Assembly: GCF_000027125.1 (NCBI RefSeq)
Contig: NC_017626.1
Length of the DNA: 64,000 nucleotides
From: Escherichia coli 042
GTDB lineage: Bacteria > Pseudomonadota > Gammaproteobacteria > Enterobacterales > Enterobacteriaceae
Strand: one strand, 5' to 3'
Position 1 is the first letter of the stretch; every line of letters starts with the position of its first letter. The notes beneath the pieces were generated by a model. That model did no database searches. It was given only the letters and a program-made list of their open reading frames with translations, and was not told where the DNA came from. A program made the translations under genes and the position numbers. This document shows, in pieces, positions 6,537 to 57,218 of the stretch.

Positions 6537-7190
6537 CTTAAGAAGTCCGTCGGTCAGGGGGAGCATGAACTCTCCATCCTCACCGGAGTTGAGCTGGTTG
6601 TCAAACGTGGCGAGACCATCGCACTGGTGGGCGAGTCGGGATCGGGTAAGTCAACCTTGCTGGCGATCCTCGCCGGGCTGGATGACGGCAGCAGTGGCGA
6701 AGTGAGTCTGGTGGGACAACCTCTACATAATATGGACGAAGAAGCGCGGGCAAAGTTGCGCGCGAAGCACGTAGGCTTTGTTTTTCAGTCATTTATGTTA
6801 ATTCCTACCCTTAACGCGCTGGAAAACGTCGAGCTTCCGGCGCTGCTGCGCGGTGAGAGTAGCGCAGAAAGTCGTAACGGGGCGAAAGCGTTGCTCGAAC
6901 AGTTAGGGCTGGGTAAACGTCTGGATCATCTTCCGGCACAGCTTTCTGGCGGTGAACAGCAACGAGTGGCACTGGCACGAGCCTTTAACGGTCGACCTGA
7001 TGTGCTGTTTGCCGACGAACCCACCGGCAACCTTGACCGCCAGACCGGCGATAAAATTGCCGACCTGCTGTTTTCCCTCAACCGTGAACATGGCACCACG
7101 TTGATTATGGTGACCCACGACCTGCAACTGGCGGCACGCTGCGACCGCTGCTTACGGCTGGTGAACGGGCAGTTGCAGGAGGAAGCATGA
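6504..7190 (+). CDS. ybbA: ABC transporter ATP-binding protein YbbA
   Basis: 228 aa with Walker A GESGSGKST and LSGGEQQR signature; divergent from tesA, cotranscribed with ybbP. Confidence 0.9.
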   Translation: MPAENIVEVHHLKKSVGQGEHELSILTGVELVVKRGETIALVGESGSGKSTLLAILAGLDDGSSGEVSLVGQPLHNMDEEARAKLRAKHVGFVFQSFMLIPTLNALENVELPALLRGESSAESRNGAKALLEQLGLGKRLDHLPAQLSGGEQQRVALARAFNGRPDVLFADEPTGNLDRQTGDKIADLLFSLNREHGTTLIMVTHDLQLAARCDRCLRLVNGQLQEEA

Positions 7191-9601
7191 TTGCACGTTG
7201 GTTCTGGCGCGAATGGCGTTCGCCGTCGCTATTAATTGTCTGGCTGGCGCTAAGCCTGGCGGTGGCCTGCGTGCTGGCGCTGGGCAATATCAGCGATCGC
7301 ATGGAGAAGGGCTTAAGCCAGCAAAGCCGTGAGTTTATGGCGGGCGATCGGGCGTTGCGCAGTTCGCGCGAAGTGCCGCAAGCGTGGCTGGAGGAAGCGC
7401 AAAAGCGCGGCCTGAAAGTCGGCAAGCAGCTGACTTTCGCCACCATGACATTTGCAGGCGACACACCGCAGCTGGCGAACGTCAAAGCGGTGGATGATAT
7501 CTACCCGATGTATGGCGATCTGCAAACTAATCCCCCTGGCCTGAAACCGCAGGCGGGCAGCGTATTGCTGGCCCCACGCCTGATGGCACTGCTTAACCTG
7601 AAAACGGGCGACACCATTGACGTGGGCGATGCCACCTTGCGGATTGCCGGAGAAGTGATTCAGGAACCGGATTCCGGTTTTAACCCCTTCCAGATGGCTC
7701 CGCGTCTGATGATGAATCTGGCGGATGTTGATAAAACCGGAGCCGTGCAGCCGGGGAGTCGGGTCACCTGGCGTTATAAATTCGGCGGCAGCGAGAATCA
7801 GCTCGACGGCTATGAGAAATGGTTGTTACCCCAGCTTAAACCCGAACAACGCTGGTACGGTCTGGAACAGGACGAAGGCGCGCTGGGGCGCTCGATGGAA
7901 CGCTCGCAACAGTTCCTGCTGCTTTCGGCGCTTCTGACCTTGCTGCTGGCAGTGGCAGCGGTGGCGGTGGCGATGAATCATTACTGTCGCAGTCGATACG
8001 ATCTTGTGGCGATCCTCAAAACGCTGGGGGCAGGGCGAGCGCAACTGCGTAAGCTAATCGTCGGTCAGTGGTTGATGGTGCTGGCGCTTTCAGCCGTTAC
8101 CGGCGGGGCGATAGGCCTGTTGTTCGAAAACGTGTTGATGGTGCTGCTCAAGCCCGTTCTGCCTGCTGCACTACCGCCTGCCAGCCTCTGGCCGTGGCTG
8201 TGGGCGCTGGGCACCATGACGGTCATCTCGCTGCTGGTGGGGCTACGACCGTACCGCCTGTTGTTGGCAACGCAGCCTTTACGCGTATTGCGTAATGATG
8301 TGGTCGCGAACGTCTGGCCGCTCAAGTTTTATCTGCCGATTGTCAGTGTGGTGGTTGTGCTGCTGCTCGCCGGATTAATGGGCGGCAGTATGCTGCTCTG
8401 GGCGGTGCTGGCGGGCGCGGTAGTGCTGGCTTTGCTGTGCGGTGTGCTGGGCTGGATGCTGCTGAATGTACTTCGCCGCATGACGCTGAAATCGCTACCT
8501 CTGCGCCTGGCGGTTAGCCGCCTGTTACGTCAGCCGTGGTCAACGTTAAGCCAGCTTTCGGCATTTTCGCTCTCCTTTATGCTACTGGCACTGCTGCTGG
8601 TGTTGCGTGGCGATCTGCTCGACCGCTGGCAGCAGCAGCTACCGCCAGAAAGCCCGAACTACTTTTTAATCAACATCGCCACAGAACAGGTTACACCGCT
8701 AAAAGCGTTCCTCGCGGAACATCAGATAGTCCCGGAATCATTTTATCCGGTGGTGCGGGCGCGGCTGACGGCGATTAACGACAAGCCGACAGAAGGCAAT
8801 GAAGATGAGGCGCTTAACCGCGAACTCAATCTTACCTGGCAAAATACGCGGCCCGATCATAATCCGATTGTTGCCGGTAACTGGCCGCCAAAAGCCGATG
8901 AAGTGTCGATGGAAGAGGGGCTGGCGAAACGCTTAAACGTTGCCCTCGGAGATACCGTGACTTTTATGGGCGATACCCAGGAGTTCCGCGCTAAAGTGAC
9001 CAGCCTGCGCAAAGTGGACTGGGAAAGTCTGCGGCCTAATTTCTATTTTATTTTCCCGGAAGGGGCATTAGACGGGCAGCCGCAGAGCTGGCTTACCAGT
9101 TTCCGCTGGGAGAATGGCAACGGCATGTTGACGCAACTCAACCGCCAGTTCCCGACCATTAGCCTGTTAGACATTGGCGCGATTTTAAAACAGGTCGGCC
9201 AGGTGCTGGAGCAGGTAAGTCGGGCGCTGGAAGTGATGGTGGTGCTGGTCACCGCCTGCGGTATGTTGCTGTTGCTGGCACAGGTGCAGGTGGGAATGCG
9301 TCAGCGTCATCAGGAGCTGGTGGTGTGGCGCACACTCGGTGCGGGGAAAAAACTACTACGCACGACATTGTGGTGTGAGTTCGCCATGCTCGGGTTTGTT
9401 TCTGGCCTGGTGGCCGCAATTGGTGCGGAAACGGCGCTGGCAGTGTTGCAGGCGAAAGTGTTTGATTTCCCGTGGGAGCCAGACTGGCGATTGTGGGTTG
9501 TGCTGCCGTGCAGCGGTGCGCTGCTGCTGTCGCTTTTCGGCGGCTGGCTGGGTGCGCGACTGGTTAAGGGTAAGGCGCTGTTCAGGCAGTTTGCGGGGTG
9601 A
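7187..9601 (+). CDS. ybbP: ABC transporter permease YbbP (FtsX-like, two permease domains)
   Basis: 804 aa polytopic membrane protein, 4-bp overlap with ybbA. Confidence 0.9.
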   Translation: MIARWFWREWRSPSLLIVWLALSLAVACVLALGNISDRMEKGLSQQSREFMAGDRALRSSREVPQAWLEEAQKRGLKVGKQLTFATMTFAGDTPQLANVKAVDDIYPMYGDLQTNPPGLKPQAGSVLLAPRLMALLNLKTGDTIDVGDATLRIAGEVIQEPDSGFNPFQMAPRLMMNLADVDKTGAVQPGSRVTWRYKFGGSENQLDGYEKWLLPQLKPEQRWYGLEQDEGALGRSMERSQQFLLLSALLTLLLAVAAVAVAMNHYCRSRYDLVAILKTLGAGRAQLRKLIVGQWLMVLALSAVTGGAIGLLFENVLMVLLKPVLPAALPPASLWPWLWALGTMTVISLLVGLRPYRLLLATQPLRVLRNDVVANVWPLKFYLPIVSVVVVLLLAGLMGGSMLLWAVLAGAVVLALLCGVLGWMLLNVLRRMTLKSLPLRLAVSRLLRQPWSTLSQLSAFSLSFMLLALLLVLRGDLLDRWQQQLPPESPNYFLINIATEQVTPLKAFLAEHQIVPESFYPVVRARLTAINDKPTEGNEDEALNRELNLTWQNTRPDHNPIVAGNWPPKADEVSMEEGLAKRLNVALGDTVTFMGDTQEFRAKVTSLRKVDWESLRPNFYFIFPEGALDGQPQSWLTSFRWENGNGMLTQLNRQFPTISLLDIGAILKQVGQVLEQVSRALEVMVVLVTACGMLLLLAQVQVGMRQRHQELVVWRTLGAGKKLLRTTLWCEFAMLGFVSGLVAAIGAETALAVLQAKVFDFPWEPDWRLWVVLPCSGALLLSLFGGWLGARLVKGKALFRQFAG

Positions 9602-9609
9602 TGACAGGC

Positions 9610-9725
9610 GTTAGATTGCCTGATGCGCTACGCTTAACAGGCCCACGAGGATCGTGCAATATATTGATTTTGCAAGATTGTGTAGGCCGGATAAGGCGTT
9701 TACGCCGCATCTGGCATGAACAGTG
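9610..9725. repeat. REP-type palindromic units
   Basis: Motifs gcctgatgcgctacgc... and tgtaggccggataaggcgtttacgccgcatctggc directly after the ybbP stop. Confidence 0.6.
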
Positions 9726-9818
9726 TGCATTTTGGCAATAAATATGAAACCAACTGTCATGTCGGTTTTTTTAAAGGCCGAAGGTGGTAAACCTTCGGCC
9801 TTAGCTACGTTTCCTCAG

Positions 9819-9902
9819 TTATTCAATAAACTGACGGATCAGTTCCAGCAGCGCGATTAGCGCCTTAAGAACGATGAGAACTTTATCGAGAAAAGTTTTC
9901 AT
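9819..9902 (-). CDS. candidate type I toxin peptide (27 aa, DinQ/TisB/ZorO-like amphipathic helix)
   Basis: My translation of the minus strand: GGGAG SD, 6 nt, then ATG AAA ACT TTT ... GAA TAA = MKTFLDKVLIVLKALIALLELIRQFIE. Too short for the ORF track. Leu/Ile-rich single helix typical of small membrane-active toxins. Confidence 0.5.
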   Translation of the reverse strand: MKTFLDKVLIVLKALIALLELIRQFIE

Positions 9903-9975
9903 CCGTTGCTCCCTTAAGGGAGAAAGACAATCACAGCTTACCCTTACGTTGCCTGTAACTATGATTTTCTTCATG

Positions 9976-9991
9976 TGCTAGATGAGGACTG
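9976..9991. promoter_or_regulatory. 16-nt element tgctagatgaggactg, identical to the 5' end of the downstream sRNA candidate; predicted antisense target in the toxin 5' UTR
   Basis: Exact 16-nt direct repeat of 10162-10177, ~75-90 nt upstream of the toxin ATG on the toxin-coding strand. Confidence 0.4.
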
Positions 9992-10127
9992 CCTCTCTCC
10001 AAATTAGAGCACCAGAATCAGCACCACCTGTATCCTGACCAGGACTTAAAAGTACTTTTCCGCACTGCGGTAATCCCTTGAGGCAGTATCACTACTAGCG
10101 TCGGGATTGTATCGCCAACATAGCTGT

Positions 10128-10156
10128 TTGAATATGTAGGCATCCTGACTTATAAT
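10128..10156 (+). promoter_or_regulatory. sigma70-type promoter (TTGAAT, 17-bp spacer, TATAAT)
   Basis: -35 TTGAAT at 10128-10133 and -10 TATAAT at 10151-10156 with a 17-bp spacer; near-consensus in an intergenic region. Confidence 0.55.
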
Positions 10157-10162
10157 TCACTT

Positions 10163-10250
10163 GCTAGATGAGGACTGTTTCATTTCTACCCGGAACCACC
10201 AAGTCTTGGGCGGAAAAAATAAAAAAACCGACTGTCATGTCGGTTTTTTT
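10163..10250 (+). ncRNA. candidate small RNA (~88 nt), putative antitoxin of the type I toxin
   Basis: Predicted start ~7 nt after the -10; ends in an intrinsic terminator (accgac-tgtcat-gtcggt stem then T7 at 10244-10250). The first ~16 nt repeat the 9976-9991 element. Confidence 0.5.
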
Positions 10251-10313
10251 ATATCTGTATTCTGGTGCAACCATTCTGTTCTCACGACAATCGCCGTTTC
10301 AGAATACCGTCCA

Positions 10314-11423
<1,110 letters not shown>

Positions 11424-11476
11424 TCAAATCAGCTTGCGCGCTATTTTACGCGCCAACGCGCAAGGAAACTTGATTT

Positions 11477-12403
11477 TTAACTGCGTGGGGTGCCGAAAAT
11501 TTCTAAAAATCCGCTGATTTCCGGCCTGCGCTGGGTAAACAAGGTCACAATATCTTCTACCGCTTTGCCGCTGCCAAATTTGCGCCATGCCAGACTCAAT
11601 GGCGAAGGAGGGCGCATCGTTGGGATTACCCGGCTGACCAGTTGTTGATTATCGATCATTGACTGGCAAAGTGATTTTGGCAAAAAACCAATGCCAACGC
11701 CCGCCAGATGGGCGGCGATTTTCGTTTCCATATCAGGAACAATAATCTCTTTTTGCCCTGGCAATCGCCAGGCGACGCGTTTGGTTAAGGTGCGGGCGCT
11801 GTCTTCAATATTGACCGCCGGAAAGCGACGCAACTGCGCTTCTGTTAGCGGCTCTTCAACGTTCGCCAGCGGATGATCCGCCGCCATGACAAAGCGCCAT
11901 TGCACCGATCCTAAGGGATCAAGACTAAAGGTATTTGCCAGCGCCTCGGTTCCCGTGACGCCGATAGCCAGTGAAAAACCTTCGTACAATAGCGAGTCCC
12001 AGACGCCCATATAGATTTGCCGGGAGATGTGGAACTGGGTAAAGGGGTAACGTTCATTCAGCCACGCCAGCAGCTGGGCGACGGCCTGGGGATTGTAGAG
12101 CAGGTTGTTGATGACAATATTCACCTGGCGTTCCACGCCATCATTCACCTGTTGCAGCTCGCTGGGCATACTTTCCAGCCAGCTCAGCCAGTCTCTGGCC
12201 TGAGAAAGTAGATGCTCGCCAGCCGCTGTCAACGTCACGCTGCGAGTCGTGCGGAAAAACAGCGCCACTCCGGTATTCTCTTCCAGAAGTTTAATGCGAT
12301 AACTGATCGTCGCCGTGGTTTTACATAATCGTTCTGCCGCTTTTGAAAAACTTCCTGTTTCAGCAACCGCAATGAAAGTCCGCAAGGTTTCTGGATCGAA
12401 CAT
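11477..12403 (-). CDS. allS: LysR-family activator of allD, AllS
   Basis: 308 aa; LysR HTH at the N-terminus; divergent from allA. Confidence 0.9.
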
Positions 12404-23261: not shown

Positions 23262-23345
23262 ACCTGAATTTACCGCAAAAAAAGCCACGGTATAAACCGT
23301 GGCAAAATCCAACATAGCTAAAAATAATCAGGCGAGTGGTATGAC

Positions 23346-42335: not shown

Positions 42336-43343
42336 ATGAAGATAATCTGCAGATTATTATTGGCAATGGCATGTTTGTGTCTGGCAAACATATCCTGGGC
42401 TACTGTTTGTGCAAATAGTACTGGCGTAGCAGAAGATGAACACTATGATCTCTCAAATGTCTTTAATAGCACCAATAACCAGCCAGGGCAGATTGTTGTT
42501 TTACCGGAAAAATCCGGCTGGGTAGGTGTATCAGCAATTTGTCCACCCGGCACGCTGGTGAATTATACATACCGTAGTTATGTCACCAACTTTATTGTTC
42601 AGGAAACTATCGATAATTATAAATATATGCAATTAAATGATTATCTATTAGGTGCGATGAGTCTGGTTGATAGCGTGATGGATATTCAATTCCCTCCGCA
42701 AAATTATATTCGTATGGGAACAGATCCTAACGTTTCGCAAAACCTTCCGTTCGGGGTGATGGATTCTCGTTTGATATTTCGTTTAAAGGTTATTCGTCCC
42801 TTTATTAACATGGTGGAGATCCCCAGACAGGTGATGTTTACCGTGTATGTGACATCAACGCCTAACGATCCGTTGGTTACACCTGTTTATACCATTAGTT
42901 TTGGTGGCCGGGTTGAAGTACCGCAAAACTGCGAATTAAATGCCGGGCAAATTGTTGAATTTGATTTTGGTGATATCGGCGCATCGTTATTTAGTGCGGC
43001 AGGGCCGGGGAATCGACCAGCTGGTGTCATGCCGCAAACCAAGAGCATTGCGATCAAATGTACGAATGTTGCTGCGCAGGCTTATTTAATAATGCGTCTG
43101 GAAGCCAGTGCCGTTTCTGGTCAGGCGATGGTGTCGGACAATCAGGATTTAGGTTTTATTGTGGCCGATCAGAACGATACGCCGATCACGCCTAACGATC
43201 TCAATAGCGTTATTCCTTTCCGTCTGGATGCAGCTGCGGCAGCCAATGTCACACTTCGCGCCTGGCCTATCAGTATTACCGGTCAAAAACCGACCGAAGG
43301 GCCGTTTAGCGCGCTGGGGTATTTACGCGTCGATTATCAATGA
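42336..43343 (+). CDS. sfmH: fimbrial adhesin-like subunit
   Basis: 335-aa ORF with signal peptide (an internal Met 10 codons in gives 325 aa). Confidence 0.85.
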   Translation: MKIICRLLLAMACLCLANISWATVCANSTGVAEDEHYDLSNVFNSTNNQPGQIVVLPEKSGWVGVSAICPPGTLVNYTYRSYVTNFIVQETIDNYKYMQLNDYLLGAMSLVDSVMDIQFPPQNYIRMGTDPNVSQNLPFGVMDSRLIFRLKVIRPFINMVEIPRQVMFTVYVTSTPNDPLVTPVYTISFGGRVEVPQNCELNAGQIVEFDFGDIGASLFSAAGPGNRPAGVMPQTKSIAIKCTNVAAQAYLIMRLEASAVSGQAMVSDNQDLGFIVADQNDTPITPNDLNSVIPFRLDAAAAANVTLRAWPISITGQKPTEGPFSALGYLRVDYQ

Positions 43344-44746: not shown

Positions 44747-44823
44747 GCGCCCTTAGCTCAGTTGGATAGAGCAACGACCTTCTAAGTCGTGGGCCGCAGG
44801 TTCGAATCCTGCAGGGCGCGCCA
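44747..44823 (+). tRNA. argU: tRNA-Arg (anticodon UCU)
   Basis: 77-nt cloverleaf: acceptor gcgccct.../...agggcgc-CCA, D-arm agctcagttggatagagc, anticodon loop cTTCTAa, T-arm ggttcgaatcc. Confidence 0.95.
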
Positions 44824-44868
44824 TTTCTTCTTCATTTATCCCCGTCTTATCCGTTTCCGCTTTGCCCT

Positions 44869-45630
44869 TCACCACATCACTTTTTGTCGCTGTTTGGCGA
44901 GATAATTCAACGGTGTCAGGCCGTAAAACGCCTTAAAAACAGAGATAAAGTACGACGTGCTGCTATAGCCACATAATTGCGCTACCTGAGTGATATTTTT
45001 GTTATCCATCAATAACATCTGTACGGCGTAACGCATACGACACTCTGTGACAATCTGGCTATAGCTGGTATTTTCGTTTTTTAATTTCTTTTTGAGCAGG
45101 CTGGGGCTTAAACATAGCGAACTGGCGACAATTCGCAGATTCCAGTAATGCTGAATATCGCTTTGAATAATGCGGCAGACGCTGTCGCGGACGCTGCTGC
45201 GTAAGATATACATCAGTAGGGCAATAAACCGCGATTGCTCAAGAAAGTTAGACAATACGGTAAAAAGCAATGCGCGCGTCAACTCCGCTTCGCAGGGTTT
45301 GCTGGGTTGCTGCTTGCTGTGGTTGGCGGCTAGCCGGAACACTTCCGGTGTACGGCTATGACAAGCGATAACCGGGGTTGCCAGCCGCGACCAGGGCTTT
45401 ACACAGGTTAAGTTCTTATTTAAAAACAACAGATAATCGTTGATGATGTTGCGGTTGATGTGGGTGATTAATACGTGATTTAACGTTGAGAGTTCAATGA
45501 CGTTATTGTTGCACGCGAAGGCGGCCAGGTAATTTTTCGGAAGGGTAAACGTGGCATGGTTATTGACGCTTACCTCTACCTCTTTTTCGGTCAGGATCAC
45601 CACGCAAGGTTCACTGCTGCTCAATTGCAT
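44869..45630 (-). CDS. envY: AraC-family transcriptional regulator
   Basis: 253 aa; C-terminal AraC-type double HTH; sits next to ybcH as envY does in K-12. Confidence 0.75.
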   Translation of the reverse strand: MQLSSSEPCVVILTEKEVEVSVNNHATFTLPKNYLAAFACNNNVIELSTLNHVLITHINRNIINDYLLFLNKNLTCVKPWSRLATPVIACHSRTPEVFRLAANHSKQQPSKPCEAELTRALLFTVLSNFLEQSRFIALLMYILRSSVRDSVCRIIQSDIQHYWNLRIVASSLCLSPSLLKKKLKNENTSYSQIVTECRMRYAVQMLLMDNKNITQVAQLCGYSSTSYFISVFKAFYGLTPLNYLAKQRQKVMW

Positions 45631-51900: not shown

Positions 51901-52236
51901 ACAAAAACCTTACATTAACGCTGGTTATGTTTAGGGTGGCGTATATTAAGGTTTTTTATGAATTGTGACAGCTTTTTACCATTAATAGGTATGACTATTG
52001 CGGCACGTTATTTTTACACTGGTTATAAAAGTTGCCGTTTGCGTAGAATGTAGACAAAAGCGTGGTGTCAAGGAGGGGCGGTAAACGTCATAGTGAAGAG
52101 GAGTGGTGGCACCGATCAGGTCATCATGTAGTGTAAGCGTCTGGAGGAGGTGAGCAGGGGAGATCATTTTCCCCGTGCTGAACAAAAAGACGGCGTTGCT
52201 GTGGGTACAGGAAGGCTAACTTCATTTCTCTTTAGA

Positions 52237-52773
52237 TTATTTAAGTTTAATATTCAACCAGGAAATAAAGAACGTTAAAATAACAAAGGAAAAAACAATC
52301 AAAGAGACATTCCTGAAAAATACGTGCTCATAAAAAAGATAAAAAACGTACAAAATTGGGCACGCAACTTTCAGGACGTTTATATGTTTAGAATTCTCTT
52401 TATCTTTAAAGTTAAAATTACATAAAAATATAAAGAAATATGAAAGCATGGCTGAAAACATCATTGATAAGGCGCGATATGGCAGTCCTGAATTAAAGGT
52501 TTCGACTCCTAATAATATTGTCGATAGCGTTGCAATTATAATTGCCACTTTTTTACTAGAGGTGAAAGTAACGACAAAAAATATCAATGATATAAATAAG
52601 AAAGAAAAAAATATGTAAATATTTGTTGATATATGTACTTTATGAGGAACTGTAAAATAGGTATAACTGATTGTAATTATGATGGTAATTATTCTGTATA
52701 GCATGCATGCTAACAGGCCAATCAGTAGTTTGTTCGCAAATTTATAAGGGGATTCGCTATTGGTTGATTGCAT
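52237..52773 (-). CDS. hypothetical polytopic membrane protein (178 aa), AT-rich, island gene
   Basis: Four to six hydrophobic segments; Ile/Phe/Lys-rich composition typical of horizontally acquired genes. Confidence 0.5.
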   Translation of the reverse strand: MQSTNSESPYKFANKLLIGLLACMLYRIITIIITISYTYFTVPHKVHISTNIYIFFSFLFISLIFFVVTFTSSKKVAIIIATLSTILLGVETFNSGLPYRALSMMFSAMLSYFFIFLCNFNFKDKENSKHINVLKVACPILYVFYLFYEHVFFRNVSLIVFSFVILTFFISWLNIKLK

Positions 52774-52837
52774 GGTTATTATGCTCTTGAATTGTGTATT
52801 TTATTGGAATGTTTCTTGGTTAACTAAAACAATGCAT

Positions 52838-53266
52838 TTAATAGGTGGTGGTGTAAATATCAATGTCATACTCATTATCACAGACTACTATTACTCTACG
52901 AGTTATGTCAAAAAATAACGTTAAATCATAGGTTCCCTGTTCTCTGAAAATACTCTGCGCAAATGACGTGAAATTATTCCCATTTATAACTATTTTTACT
53001 TTACCTTCATAGATAAGCCAGCAACGAAAACATTCAGCTGTACCAGATAATGTCACTATCTGACTGATTAGAAGATTTATATTTACCGGATGAGGTAAAA
53101 AAAGTCTGTCGTTGAGGCAATCAATATTATGTGTTTGATGAAACTCTTTTCTCATTAATGAAGAGTTATCATATAGCAGGGTTATACTAAACGAGTCAAT
53201 TCCGTCAAGCTTTTGCATAAATTTGTTTGCTTTATAAATAAGCAACTTTGCTTGTGTTTTTGTCAT
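52838..53266 (-). CDS. hypothetical protein (142 aa), island gene
   Basis: ORF-track ORF, AT-rich, same orientation and tight spacing with neighbours. Confidence 0.45.
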   Translation of the reverse strand: MTKTQAKLLIYKANKFMQKLDGIDSFSITLLYDNSSLMRKEFHQTHNIDCLNDRLFLPHPVNINLLISQIVTLSGTAECFRCWLIYEGKVKIVINGNNFTSFAQSIFREQGTYDLTLFFDITRRVIVVCDNEYDIDIYTTTY

Positions 53267-53293
53267 GATGGTGATCTTTTATGCAAGGGGGAA

Positions 53294-53740
53294 TTATTGG
53301 AATTCAAATGTTTTATATTCCTCTGTAATCATCTTTAAACTTAACATAGCCATGTCTCGGGTATCTTCATCATCAGATTGTAGAGAAATATTTAATCCTT
53401 TAATTAAGGTGTTATCGGGAAAAGCCATTGCCAATAATGTATACCAACATCGGACACTTTTTATTGTCAGAGGATTTTCCAGTATGTTGGCGATATTTGA
53501 AGCTATAATGTTTTTATCACACTTGTACAAAAAATCTTCGACCAACTGATATACACCGAAGCCATCACCTTCCCCAAACGATTGTAAAAATAACGGTATG
53601 GCTTCTTCAGCAGGATTTGCAGAAAAATAAAGCCTTACATTGTTATATTTATTGATAAGTTCCTGAGTGATGTCATAATCATTTGGCATAGGTTGGTTTA
53701 GAGCAAGGAATGCTAATGCTTCTTTTTTAGTCATATTCAT
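53294..53740 (-). CDS. hypothetical protein (148 aa); possible orphan immunity protein
   Basis: ORF-track ORF, acidic and largely helical by eye; AT-rich and next to IS/Rhs remnants. Confidence 0.4.
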   Translation of the reverse strand: MNMTKKEALAFLALNQPMPNDYDITQELINKYNNVRLYFSANPAEEAIPLFLQSFGEGDGFGVYQLVEDFLYKCDKNIIASNIANILENPLTIKSVRCWYTLLAMAFPDNTLIKGLNISLQSDDEDTRDMAMLSLKMITEEYKTFEFQ

Positions 53741-53760
53741 AATGGTTAATATTGCTTGCT

Positions 53761-54313
53761 GGAAGAATTAAGGTAAAAATGGTTCATAGACAGAATTAAA
53801 TAGGAAGTCTTGTTTCCAGATAACTTTATCATGAAAAAGAGATTTGGCTTGATGCGTATAAAGATTATGAGGATAAATAGTTTCTCCACCATAAATGATG
53901 TTCTTTCCCGTTACACCGGAGAATTCATTGGCTATAATCTGTCGTTTAAGCCAGTGAATGACTTTACATAAGCATATTAATTTATCCTTAGAATCAGTTG
54001 TGTTAATTTCAGTAAGTTGTAAAATCTTTTCCCCATTATACTCAACTAAATGCCCCGGCTTTATTTCAATTCAACCACAATAACGATCAATGCTACTAAA
54101 CTTTATTCTTCTATTGTTAGGTTTAATGCTGGGCATAAGATAAATTCGATGTGCTACGGCAGGGATCTTTTCTGTTAAGACATTTAATTGCTTAGAGTAT
54201 TCATCTTGTAGTGTAAACCAAATTGAATGTAATTTGTATTTTGAGGCTACAATCGCGAGCCAATTAGACAGTTCCTCGTTCGTGCAAAAAACATTTATCC
54301 TGGCAGTTGCCAT
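53761..54313 (-). pseudogene. frameshifted hypothetical gene (~180 codons in two frames)
   Basis: The 80-aa ORF 54071-54313 stops at 54071, but an open frame continues in another frame to ~53761 (IEIKPGHLVEYNGEKILQLTEINTTDSKDKLICLCK...). Confidence 0.4.
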
Positions 54314-54346
54314 TCGTAATCCTTTTTATATAAGATTGTGTGAATG

Positions 54347-54549
54347 TCACCGAAACAACTTGATATGAATAAAATAGCTAAAGCGAAATGGATGACGTGT
54401 TACTAAAAAACCATTCTGAAAAGGAAGCCTGAATAAACGCGATGACGAAACTTCCACTCTCCATGTTTCATCAGAAAAATAACTAAATTCGATGTGGTTT
54501 TCATATAATCTCATTTCACGTAAGGTTCCGCTACCATAAGGGACCGCAA
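54347..54549 (-). pseudogene. orphan 3' gene fragment abutting the H-repeat end
   Basis: The track ORF 54347-54583 starts inside the element's terminal repeat; only the part outside the element can be native. Confidence 0.3.
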
Positions 54550-54550
54550 T

Positions 54551-55841
54551 CAGGGAAAGATTACGAAAGCCCGCTCCCAGCAAGGACTGACGCCAGATAG
54601 TTTCTGTCCATGGCTGCTTTTCGCATCTTACGTCTTAACCCTGCCTTGAATACCTTATCATTCGTCAAAATATTAATAGCGATGTGCCGTATCCCTGAAA
54701 ATAATTCTGCGGCGTTTCCTCTTCTTATTTTGCAGTCGTCTTCATTCATTACCACGTCCAGACGCCAGTGCAGCTTATTCTCCACGTGCCAGCGGTTTCG
54801 GATTGCTGTGGCGAACTTCTCTGCGGTTAAATCAGCACAACTGATATAATATCTGACCGTCATTTCTGGCTCTTTCTTTTGTTCTGCTATTATTGACCGA
54901 AAGGAGACTGCCACGCATAATTTCTTCAGACCTTTCCATTCAAACGTGAAATCAATAAGTTCATCAGGGACATCGCAAACAATGTGAAGACGGATTTCTT
55001 CTCTGCCGTGACTCTTTTCACTAATTGCGTAACTGTCATGCTCTGGATTATTTAATTCTTTCAGTGGGAATTTTTCCTCAAAGGCTTTATTAAGCCGCCC
55101 CTGATTTCCTTTTACAGCGAATAAATAATCACCGCCCTGTTTTTGTATCTTCTCTGCAATATCTTTCTGGCAACCCATCGCATCAGTTGTGATGATTTTT
55201 CCTTTAATATCCAGCATGTTAAGAAGTTCAGGGATAGCTGTAATCTCATTTGATTTCTCATCCGTCCTGATCTGTCCGATGACCAGACTGTGCATTGTTG
55301 AGAACGCACTAATGACATGAATCGCTCCCTTGCGGCGACTCTTGTCATAAGAATGCCGGAGTGTTTTTCCATCAATTGCGATGACGTCTTTATCATCTGA
55401 AGAATGGCAGTCACGCATCCAGTTAATAAAGCACTCGTGAAATTTTGCAGGACTGATACAGGATACAACTCTGGCAATAGTATCGTGAACAGGAATACCA
55501 TTATCAAAATCACCATATTGCTTCAAAAAATCGAGATGTGTTTCCCCAAAATCCTCTATATCTTCCCAGCCTTCTGCACCCGAAATAACGGCACAAATAG
55601 TCAACAGTAGAATATCCGATAATTTATGTTCCACTTTCCAGGCTTGTCTGTAATCGGGGATAATAGAAATATGTTCCATCAATTTTTTAAGTTCCATTTT
55701 GTTCTCCTTAATTATGTAAGGAGTATTTGATCATGTATAAGCAATAAAAAACAGCTTTAGGTAATGAGGAATATCTCAATTTGTAAACATAAAATGCGAA
55801 TTATTTAGTACAAAAAGTGTACTTCTGATGATCTTTCCCTG
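54551..55841 (-). mobile_element. H-repeat / ISAs1-family insertion sequence, copy 1 (apparently intact)
   Basis: ~1.29 kb bounded by inverted repeats cagggaaagat (54551-54561) and atctttccctg (55831-55841); contains one long transposase ORF. Confidence 0.8.
54561..55697 (-). CDS. H-repeat-associated (ISAs1-family) transposase, 378 aa
   Basis: 378-aa ORF of the size and character of E. coli Rhs-associated H-repeat proteins; a second disrupted copy lies at 56.7-58.6 kb. Confidence 0.8.
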
Positions 55842-56045
55842 GGAGGTGATACTGACCGTCTGCCCGAATTCGTCATAGAGGAAAAACGTCGCGCCGCCCT
55901 CCGGGTCAATTTCACACACCGGAAGCCGGTCTTCACTGAAGCGGATAATGGTGGTATGCCCCAGCGAATCAGTCATCTCCAGCTCATGGCAGAAATCATT
56001 CCATACAAAGTGGTAGTCGTAGTACCCGCCGTCGCCCAACAGCAA
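55842..56045 (-). pseudogene. YD-repeat (Rhs-like) gene fragment truncated by the H-repeat
   Basis: YD-type repeat signature (...CEIDPEGGATFFLYDEFGQTVSITSQ) runs into the element end; no upstream Rhs core. Confidence 0.45.
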
Positions 56046-56062
56046 TCAATCATCGAATCAAA

Positions 56063-56524
56063 TTAACTTGACAAGGTTTTTATTTTTTCGTGTTCGAAAA
56101 ATAAATGTAGCATAGCGTCATTAATATTACCGCCTATAATACAAAAATAGTTATCAAAACCACCATAAAGAGCACCATCATCTGAAATAAAATATGTCAT
56201 ATGCTCAGAAAAACCAACACCAACAGGACATAAACGCTTATTGACCAATGGTTCATAGACTTCAGTTATCCATTTAGAGTCTATCCAACCAGCAGCTTTT
56301 ATTGGATCAAAATCGGATTTATCATACTCATTAGGATCTGAATAAGATTCATGCCGTACTATCAACCCTCCAAACTCTGATAAAAAATCACAAATAATTT
56401 CATTAACAAAATATTTCTTAATGGATAAACACTTTATATATTTATCTATGTTTTCTTTTCTGCCATAGTGCCATCCATTTTGCAACAGGACACTCATCAC
56501 TTGTTTATTCGTTATATGATTCAT
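56063..56524 (-). CDS. candidate immunity protein for the upstream deaminase-like toxin tip (153 aa)
   Basis: Starts 2 nt after the toxin-fragment stop (TAATTATG), the usual toxin-immunity coupling; family not assigned from sequence alone. Confidence 0.45.
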   Translation of the reverse strand: MNHITNKQVMSVLLQNGWHYGRKENIDKYIKCLSIKKYFVNEIICDFLSEFGGLIVRHESYSDPNEYDKSDFDPIKAAGWIDSKWITEVYEPLVNKRLCPVGVGFSEHMTYFISDDGALYGGFDNYFCIIGGNINDAMLHLFFEHEKIKTLSS

Positions 56525-56526
56525 AA

Positions 56527-56704
56527 TTACCCCGTTAATACATCAATTCCTAAATATTTGAAAATTTCCTGACAGTTTCTACAGTTCGGAAAAGCACTTC
56601 CATCACCAGTATGAACTGTAGCCATTTCCAAATCATGCAACGATGAATTATCTTTGAGAGCTTTATTCACCGCATCTATTTCAGCACAATTATTAACAGC
56701 CCAA
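56527..56704 (-). pseudogene. truncated C-terminal toxin domain with nucleotide deaminase-like motifs
   Basis: Native ~59 codons after the IS boundary: ...NNCAEIDAVNKAL...(33 aa)...AFPNCRNCQEIF..., i.e. a [C/H]AE helix plus CxxC pair with deaminase-fold spacing; the 5' part is replaced by the H-repeat. Confidence 0.5.
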
Positions 56705-57218
56705 GGCAAGATTACGAAAGCCCGCACCCCGCAAGGACTGCCGCCAGGTAGTTTCTGTCCATGGCTGCTTTTCGCATCTTACGTCTTAACCCTGCCTTGA
56801 ATACCTTATCATTCGTTAAAATATTAATAGCGATGTGCCGTATCCCTGAAAATAATTCTGCGGCGTTTCCTCTTCTTATTTTGCAGTCGTCTTCATTCAT
56901 TACCACGTCCAGACGCCAGTGCAGCTTATTCTCCACGTGCCAGTGGTTTCGGATTGCTGTGGCGAACTTCTCTGCGGTTAAATCAGCAGAACTGATATAA
57001 TATCTGACCGTCATTTCTGGCTCTTTCTTTTGTTCTGCTATTATTGACCGAAAGGAGACTGCCACGCATAATTTCTTCAGACCTTTCCATTCAAACGTGA
57101 AATCAATAAGTTCATCAGGGACATCGCAAACAATGTGAAGACGGATTTCTTCTCTGCCGTGACTCTTTTCACTCATTGCGTAACTGTTATGCTCTGGATT
57201 ATTGGTAATGACTCCAAC

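Follow-up and report, generated by a model that had tools for sequence, protein, structure and literature searches.

The ybbP-mnmH interval and its counterpart in K-12

We analyzed a 64,000-nucleotide stretch of the Escherichia coli 042 chromosome (contig NC_017626.1; "the window" hereafter means this whole stretch) and, within it, the interval between the genes ybbP and mnmH, which in E. coli K-12 holds the RhsD element. ybbP ends at position 9601 and the stop codon of mnmH begins at 10314, giving a spacer of 712 bp (9602-10313). The two flanking genes and the two blocks that fill this spacer are as follows; Ecol_316, whose annotation was used for the gene names, is 99.65% identical to and collinear with window positions 1-50000 and has identical gene names in RefSeq.

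7187-9601, plus strand: ybbP, the left flanking gene, 804 amino acids (aa) (open reading frame (ORF) list; RefSeq annotation of the collinear Ecol_316).
9617-9716, unstranded: bacterial interspersed mosaic element (BIME) made of two inverted repetitive extragenic palindromic (REP) units, at about 9617-9643 and about 9682-9716 (repeat search; partial Rfam matches).
9730-10299, unstranded: 570-bp module of very probable dql/agr type I toxin-antitoxin kind (exact gap in the alignment with three other E. coli spacers, L004, L005 and L013).
10314-11408, minus strand: mnmH (selU/ybbB), the right flanking gene, 364 aa (ORF list; annotation).

In the annotated genome of K-12 MG1655 the gene order is ybbP-rhsD-ybbC-ylbH-ybbD-ylbI-ylbG-selU(mnmH), with six genes and 7,301 bp separating ybbP and mnmH. 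This is the order that the initial annotation of the window had given, and the distance also disposes of the possibility that the two genes lie next to each other in K-12 as well. To map the junctions we compared window positions 9000-11500 with the K-12 region using BLAST (word size 11, E 1e-3). The left match covers 9000-9607 at 97.0% identity and ends at K-12 position 522836, the right match covers 10312-11500 at 96.2% identity and begins at K-12 position 530130, with a weak resemblance, seen by eye, running leftward to ~10303, and no similarity to K-12 was found between 9607 and 10312 at these settings. RhsD and its associated genes are absent, as the initial annotation had stated, and the search against K-12 522837-530129 identified no Rhs remnant in the spacer, i.e., no core ORF, core extension, immunity gene or ylbG-side remnant. 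The ORF list likewise contains no large rhs core ORF with YD/RHS repeats between ybbP and mnmH, the longest ORF in the spacer being of 51 aa. The same interval therefore holds 704 bp here (9608-10311) and 7,293 bp in K-12, with nothing in common, and since the two share no sequence, K-12 is not the window sequence plus an insertion; the two are alternative fillings of one interval.

The first of the two blocks in this spacer confirms the REP units noted initially. These are imperfect palindromes of ~35 nt, with many genomic copies and arranged as an inverted pair, as is characteristic of REP units and BIMEs. The second REP has a near-identical copy at 1092-1121 in the window, where none is expected by chance, and its segment has a per-genome median of ~16 matching places in E. 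coli, which drives the multiplicity of matches obtained with spacer queries. With Rfam, the spacer REPs gave partial, sub-threshold matches only, to the REP-derived families naRNA4 and ES036. Elsewhere in the window, a naRNA4 match over its gathering score is present at 1045-1122 (66.2 bits).

Anatomy of the dql module

The second block is collinear with the dinQ-agrA region of K-12, with a mean column identity of 68%. The dinQ-agrAB locus is a type I toxin-antitoxin locus of K-12 located in the gor-arsR intergenic region (Weel-Sneve 2013, Kristiansen 2016; PMC3567139, PMC5066626), and dql genes are chromosomal dinQ homologues with a similar 5' untranslated region (UTR) and signature residues that co-exist with dinQ in some strains (PMC5066626); 14 dql sequences have been published for the Enterobacteriaceae (Kristiansen et al. 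2016, PMC5066626). The module here fits this published definition, and its elements are as follows, where SD is the Shine-Dalgarno sequence, sRNA a small RNA and MFE the minimum free energy.

9734-9773, plus strand: incomplete repeat of the Agr 3' end with its terminator hairpin (stem 9747-9768, then T7; direct repeat D1 and terminator scan).
9774-9802, minus strand: dql mRNA terminator hairpin with 12-bp arms (inverted repeat I3; aligns with the K-12 dinQ terminator).
9819-9902, minus strand: dql ORF, encoding the 27-aa peptide MKTFLDKVLIVLKALIALLELIRQFIE plus stop (translation, NCBIfam, RefSeq).
9909-9922, minus strand: SD-sequestering hairpin CUCCC-UUAA-GGGAG, with the SD GGGAG at 9913-9909, 6 nt before the ATG (read from the sequence).
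9977-10000, minus strand: predicted Agr target in the dql 5' UTR, at ~+100 to +123 (direct repeat D2 shared with the sRNA 5' end; duplex prediction).
10080-10099, minus strand: "sequence 1", GCUAGUAGUGAUACUGCCUC, the 5' end predicted for the dql mRNA (pairs with the Agr target in the 328-nt MFE fold).
10106-10132, minus strand: candidate dql promoter, with -10 TACAAT (10111-10106), -35 TTCAAA (10132-10127) and a 15-nt spacer (by eye).
10128-10156, plus strand: strong promoter for the Agr-like sRNA, TTGAAT-17 nt-TATAAT (agrees with the consensus at 10 of 12 positions).
10163-10256, plus strand: Agr-like antisense sRNA of ~90 nt, with a 5' antisense segment, an internal hairpin and a terminator at 10219-10252 followed by a T run.

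Two family matches support the toxin and sRNA candidate that the initial annotation had placed here. The 27-aa peptide matches the NCBIfam model NF041472 toxin_DinQ with 40.9 bits (cutoff 30; K-12 DinQ itself scores 54.0) and DqlB with 24.5, under the cutoff of 35, and on the other strand Rfam RF02891 AgrB matches over the full length of the model at 10164-10252 with 48.1 bits (gathering score 40). A Pfam search of the 27-aa peptide gave no match; precomputed tables list PF28061 DinQ for it. RefSeq holds two dinQ records for this ORF, WP_001308457.1 (51 aa) and WP_349808740.1 (27 aa), and older runs of the PGAP annotation pipeline give it as a 51-aa ORF (9819-9974). The small hydrophobic, single-helix peptide of ~27 aa bearing the DinQ signature, the divergent, non-overlapping sRNA with its own promoter and terminator, and the antisense match to the distal 5' UTR are the characteristics of DinQ/AgrB-type systems, and all are present here. 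The module also resembles dinQ-agrAB in the order and orientation of its parts (terminator, 27-aa ORF, long 5' UTR, divergent sRNA), in the peptide core DK-(I/L)IVL-ALIALLELIR common to both, and in having an SD hairpin and an sRNA with its 5' end antisense to a UTR segment ~100 nt from the start. It differs in that there is one sRNA gene here and two (agrA and agrB) there, in lacking LexA operators, in starting with ATG rather than the GTG of dinQ, and in its chromosomal site. The dqlB loci of plasmids are only 66-78% identical to it over parts of the module, and a recent plasmid source is not evident from these relatives.

The terminator of the Agr-like sRNA has perfect 14-bp arms and is one of two similar hairpins that had been described in this spacer. 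The similarity is real, the two lying in a 40-nt direct repeat, D1 (9734-9773 and 10212-10251; 83% identity, 96% over a 27-nt core), whereas their positions had to be moved, to stems at 9747-9768 and 10219-10252. On the right, the hairpin is symmetric, with a terminator score on both strands; the left-hand one is a weaker copy with a mismatch in its stem and, lying just downstream of ybbP, probably serves as the ybbP terminator.

The antisense relationship is visible as a second direct repeat, D2 (9970-9991 and 10156-10177), in which 9977-9991 is identical to 10163-10177. Between sRNA and target this gives 15 consecutive perfect pairs, after which eight of nine positions pair, four of them as G-U. 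The target occupies the position of G88-A119 in dinQ and includes GGAGAGAGG, the alternative pairing partner of the anti-SD CUUUCUCC. The predicted cognate sRNA-mRNA duplex has an energy of -54.6 kcal/mol, compared with -43.7 and -38.9 kcal/mol when the partners are crossed with those of K-12. A second, agrA-like sRNA gene at 9977-9991 was considered and ruled out by the K-12 alignment and by the lack of a downstream terminator; these positions are the antisense target in the toxin mRNA.

With the anatomy, the family matches and the complementarity observed directly, the working of the module, i.e., its transcription start sites (TSSs), processing, toxicity and regulation, is proposed by homology with dinQ/agrB. 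The primary dinQ transcript is inert, with sequence 1 paired to sequence 2 and sequences 3:4 locking the SD; once the first 43 nt are removed, sequence 2 becomes free to pair with sequence 3 and the SD opens; and AgrB binds the sequence-2 region of the mRNA, so that the SD is re-closed and an RNase III substrate is formed (PMC3567139, PMC5066626). In the module, the SD hairpin corresponds to the dinQ 3:4 hairpin CUCCAU...AUGGAG, and the elements for the pairings 1:2, 2:3 and 3:4 can all be located, both by eye and in the MFE fold, which is a thermodynamic prediction from an assumed TSS. A minus-strand mRNA of ~325 nt, starting near 10099 as placed by the candidate -10, would thus encode the 27-aa membrane peptide. 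When full-length it would be closed to translation, its 5' end pairing with the internal segment and its SD locked in the CUCCC/GGGAG hairpin; in a 5'-shortened form the freed internal segment may pair with the anti-SD and open the SD; and the divergent ~90-nt sRNA, by pairing with this same segment, would re-close the SD and probably create a substrate for RNase III. Partition-function calculations with the assumed TSS run in this direction, the probability that the SD is unpaired being 0.21 for the full-length mRNA, ~0.35 for the 5'-truncated form and 0.20 when the truncated form has its target blocked; the dinQ control gave 0.04, 0.21 and 0.02 for the same three forms, i.e., changes in the same direction.

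No LexA operator was found in the module: the best score in a position-specific scoring matrix (PSSM), built from LexA sites given in the literature, was 5.5, compared with 25.0 and 13.4 at the two K-12 dinQ operators. A LexA-like site scoring 15.7 at 42401 lies inside a fimbrial gene, has no CAG half-site and is probably a chance match. With one sRNA gene and no LexA operator, the module is probably not SOS-induced, unlike dinQ proper, and for this copy the sequence gives no support to "damage-inducible", its product name in RefSeq. The -35 elements of the Agr-like sRNA (TTGAAT, plus strand) and of the candidate dql promoter (TTCAAA, minus strand) overlap almost fully at 10127-10133, and binding of RNA polymerase at the two divergent promoters could be mutually exclusive.

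Alternative states of the site and the origin of the module

The site is known as rhs "position 3" (ybbA..ybbB) and is occupied in some strains only (PMC2935791, Table 3); the origin of position 3 is inferred to postdate the separation from the "pathogenic" lineages (Jackson et al. 2009, PMC2935791). The initial annotation had suggested a survey of occupied and empty states in E. coli, and we carried this out in 5,426 complete genomes, with the following counts.

RhsD, with the K-12-type ybbP-rhsD junction: 2,859 genomes (53%).
dql module: 1,325 genomes (24%).
Hcp/Tle1-like lipase fusion with three DUF2931 genes: 574 genomes (11%).
Short spacers: ~528 genomes (10%), with sampled lengths of 58-240 bp.
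Other or unclassified: ~140 genomes.

The short-spacer count is the number of genomes in which the ends of ybbP and mnmH lie within 800 bp (1,853) minus the 1,325 with dql. A contiguous query running from the ybbP end through the spacer to the mnmH end also matched exactly 1,325 genomes at 80% coverage; because that coverage requires part of the module, the contiguous-spacer and dql sets are identical, and dql never occurs together with a large cassette. All ten independent assemblies encoding the same dql ORF that we inspected show the mnmH-dql-ybbP context. The 18-mer GATCAGTTCCAGCAGCGC was also tried as a search probe and proved too generic, matching unrelated GC-rich genomes. Canonical dinQ is also found in 5,422 of the 5,426 genomes, i.e., it is nearly universal where the module is found in a quarter or so, and the dql copy is therefore an additional paralogue.

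Among the short spacers sampled, one of 140 bp (L004) retains the BIME and nothing else, one of 240 bp (L013) has the BIME and an extra REP, and one of 58 bp (L005) has no BIME; relative to L004 and L005, the window spacer carries a 570-bp insertion. The 58-bp spacer (L005, 2001-2058) keeps the left arm only of a hairpin, AAAGCCGTTTAT...ATAAACGGCTTT, that is complete beside the Hcp cassette (L144, 12301-12345), and this arm is joined to the right end of a BIME-type spacer, so that the 58-bp allele looks like a product of deletion or recombination and not the ancestral state. The Hcp cassette itself, in E. coli LS4 (L144, 12301-16522), is made up of an Hcp joined with a Tle1-like phospholipase domain (667 aa) and of three DUF2931 genes between ybbP and mnmH. 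It shares this interval as an alternative to both RhsD and dql; unlike the module here, it is a 4.2-kb cassette of protein toxin and immunity genes, unrelated in sequence and mechanism. RhsD (Hill and co-workers; PMC2935791) has the same chromosomal position, flanking genes and strain-variable presence or absence as the module, of whose spacer it forms no part. The spot thus has at least four main forms, i.e., RhsD, the Hcp-Tle1-like effector with three DUF2931 genes, a short spacer, and the BIME plus dql. The last residue of MnmH follows these states, being W in the window, R in K-12 and Q in short-spacer alleles (10314-10319 and the homologous positions in L001, L004, L005 and L144), and beside the Hcp cassette the MnmH tail is four residues longer (...KTYACGY). 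Since this residue varies with the state of the spacer, cassette exchange extends into the final mnmH codon.

Taken with the anatomy of the module, this distribution makes it very likely, in our view, that what the window has at rhs position 3, a known variable spot, is an allele free of Rhs, and that its filling is a BIME and a 570-bp dql type I toxin-antitoxin module. The module also stands out for its uniformity, as given below first by pairwise divergence among five carriers and then by segregating sites in eleven sequences.

Pairwise divergence: module 0.2-1.6%; 3' part of ybbP 2.8-5.1%; mnmH 3.5-4.9%; BIME 1.6-9.4%.
Segregating sites: module 1.8%; 3' part of ybbP 6.3%; mnmH 8.4%; BIME 8.6%.

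Diversity in the module is 4-10 times below that of the adjacent BIME and the coding flanks, with mismatches dense up to 9725 and from 10310 and nearly none between. Modules at least 99% identical to that of the window occur in 1,259 of the 1,325 carriers, flanks that similar in 20 genomes only, and just two substitutions were seen in the dql ORF (9834 and 9837), both silent. At the canonical dinQ locus, strains differ by up to ~10%, so that constraint alone incompletely explains the uniformity of dql, and a recent spread of the dql allele by recombination is plausible.

Several observations weigh against a working toxin-antitoxin pair. The sRNA-target duplex is of ~24 bp with four G-U pairs and one mismatch, compared with 34 bp for agrB/dinQ, and in being shortened is superficially like the non-functional AgrA; the SD of dql is predicted to open modestly; and a scan for a consensus sigma-70 promoter on the toxin strand gave none, the candidate noted above having a spacer of only 15 nt. 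In addition, 201 of the 1,325 carriers (~15%) match less than 80% of a 436-bp core query (9790-10225), and the one of these inspected, L012, has a 108-bp deletion (9880-9987) between the GATGAGRAC repeats GATGAGAAC and GATGAGGAC with which the start codon of dql, its SD and some of the sRNA target are gone. In L012 the sRNA gene is intact, and PGAP still annotates a 25-aa "dinQ".

Together with the missing LexA operators, the shortened duplex, the lack of a consensus toxin promoter and the incompletely matching carriers would fit a decaying, non-functional paralogue, a passenger at a recombination hot spot whose toxin-antitoxin pair has ceased to be expressed. We consider this unlikely: the ORF, SD hairpin, target, sRNA promoter and sRNA terminator are all intact in the window, the module is nearly identical across carriers, both ORF substitutions are silent, its diversity is far below that of its neighbours, and canonical dinQ varies more.

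The low diversity of the module, its sharp boundaries and its strict alternation with the RhsD and Hcp cassettes could be read as the mark of more than a passenger: a discrete cassette whose recent spread between lineages of E. coli was into this single hot spot and which keeps the Rhs-free allele stable. We regard this extended reading as improbable. If it were true, a type I toxin-antitoxin system would act as an allele-retention device at a site where cassettes of interbacterial toxins are exchanged.

The initial annotation had called the spacer an unoccupied Rhs site. Taken literally, this means a simple empty attachment site, in which K-12 would be the window sequence with RhsD inserted and the spacer would have no content of its own. 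The absence of RhsD and of any Rhs scar agrees with it, as does the late origin inferred for position 3, by which Rhs-free lineages may never have been occupied (PMC2935791); but none of 9608-10311 is present in K-12, there are spacers as short as 58 and 140 bp that do not contain 9730-10299, and the additional 570 bp are a recognisable gene module, so that we hold this explanation to be very improbable and do not retain the wording. Least probable of all is that RhsD was once present and later deleted, leaving the spacer as a scar: Rhs loci are known to decay and disappear (PMC2935791) and the 58-bp allele does resemble a recombinant or deletion product, with only the left arm of the Hcp-side hairpin, but the spacer has no similarity to the K-12 RhsD region at the BLAST settings given above, recurs with identical boundaries in all 1,325 genomes, and holds an organised module homologous to dinQ-agr and not fragments.

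The nfrB-cusS island, other features of the window, and implications

The missing RhsD had also been offered as an explanation for Rhs-type debris without a core near cusS, and this is not supported. The debris lies at a separate rhs locus, nfrB-cusS, which is rhs position 4, of clade IV, and is known for displaced tips (PMC2935791). The island between nfrB and cusS (~52160-63560) contains an ISAs1 element (54561-55697) and ISAs1 fragments (56702-57203 and 57971-58769), an IS1 (57219-57722), a SUKH-3 immunity ORF (56063-56524), a PAAR-like toxin fragment (60311-60625) and three beta-propeller ORFs of ~340 aa, two of which are annotated in relatives as WD40/YVTN/BNR-like repeat proteins (RefSeq); the island of relatives also contains an HNH/EndoVII toxin fragment. 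It is a decayed clade IV rhs locus for type VI secretion (T6SS) effectors. Ecol_316 shares its dql spacer with the window and yet, at cusS, carries vgrG, a DcrB-like gene and an intact PAAR-RHS-Tox-MPTase4 protein of 1,620 aa. The ybbP-mnmH and nfrB-cusS loci therefore vary independently, and neither can be predicted or explained from the state of the other.

Two further features of the window were recorded. An STnc480 match over the Rfam gathering score (84.9 bits) is located at 23273-23339, between glxK and allE. Immediately after a tRNA-Arg gene come envY, ybcH and nfrA (44747-45629), and the annotation after this tRNA gene shows no DLP12 prophage genes, no appY and no ompT, which on the K-12 map follow the corresponding tRNA gene, argU.

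The components described here are all of known and annotated kinds, i.e., REP/BIME sequences, a dql/Agr type I toxin-antitoxin module, and an Rhs presence/absence polymorphism that was already known at the ybbP-mnmH site, and our findings do not overturn current understanding. For annotation, they mean that this spacer should not be called an empty Rhs site, as it carries a second dinQ paralogue without a LexA box, and that the debris near cusS should be assigned to another Rhs locus. What they add is modest: a hot spot with four states, one allele of which is marked by an unusually uniform dinQ paralogue lacking a LexA box, and this four-state picture could serve in studies of the replacement of one toxin cassette by another.

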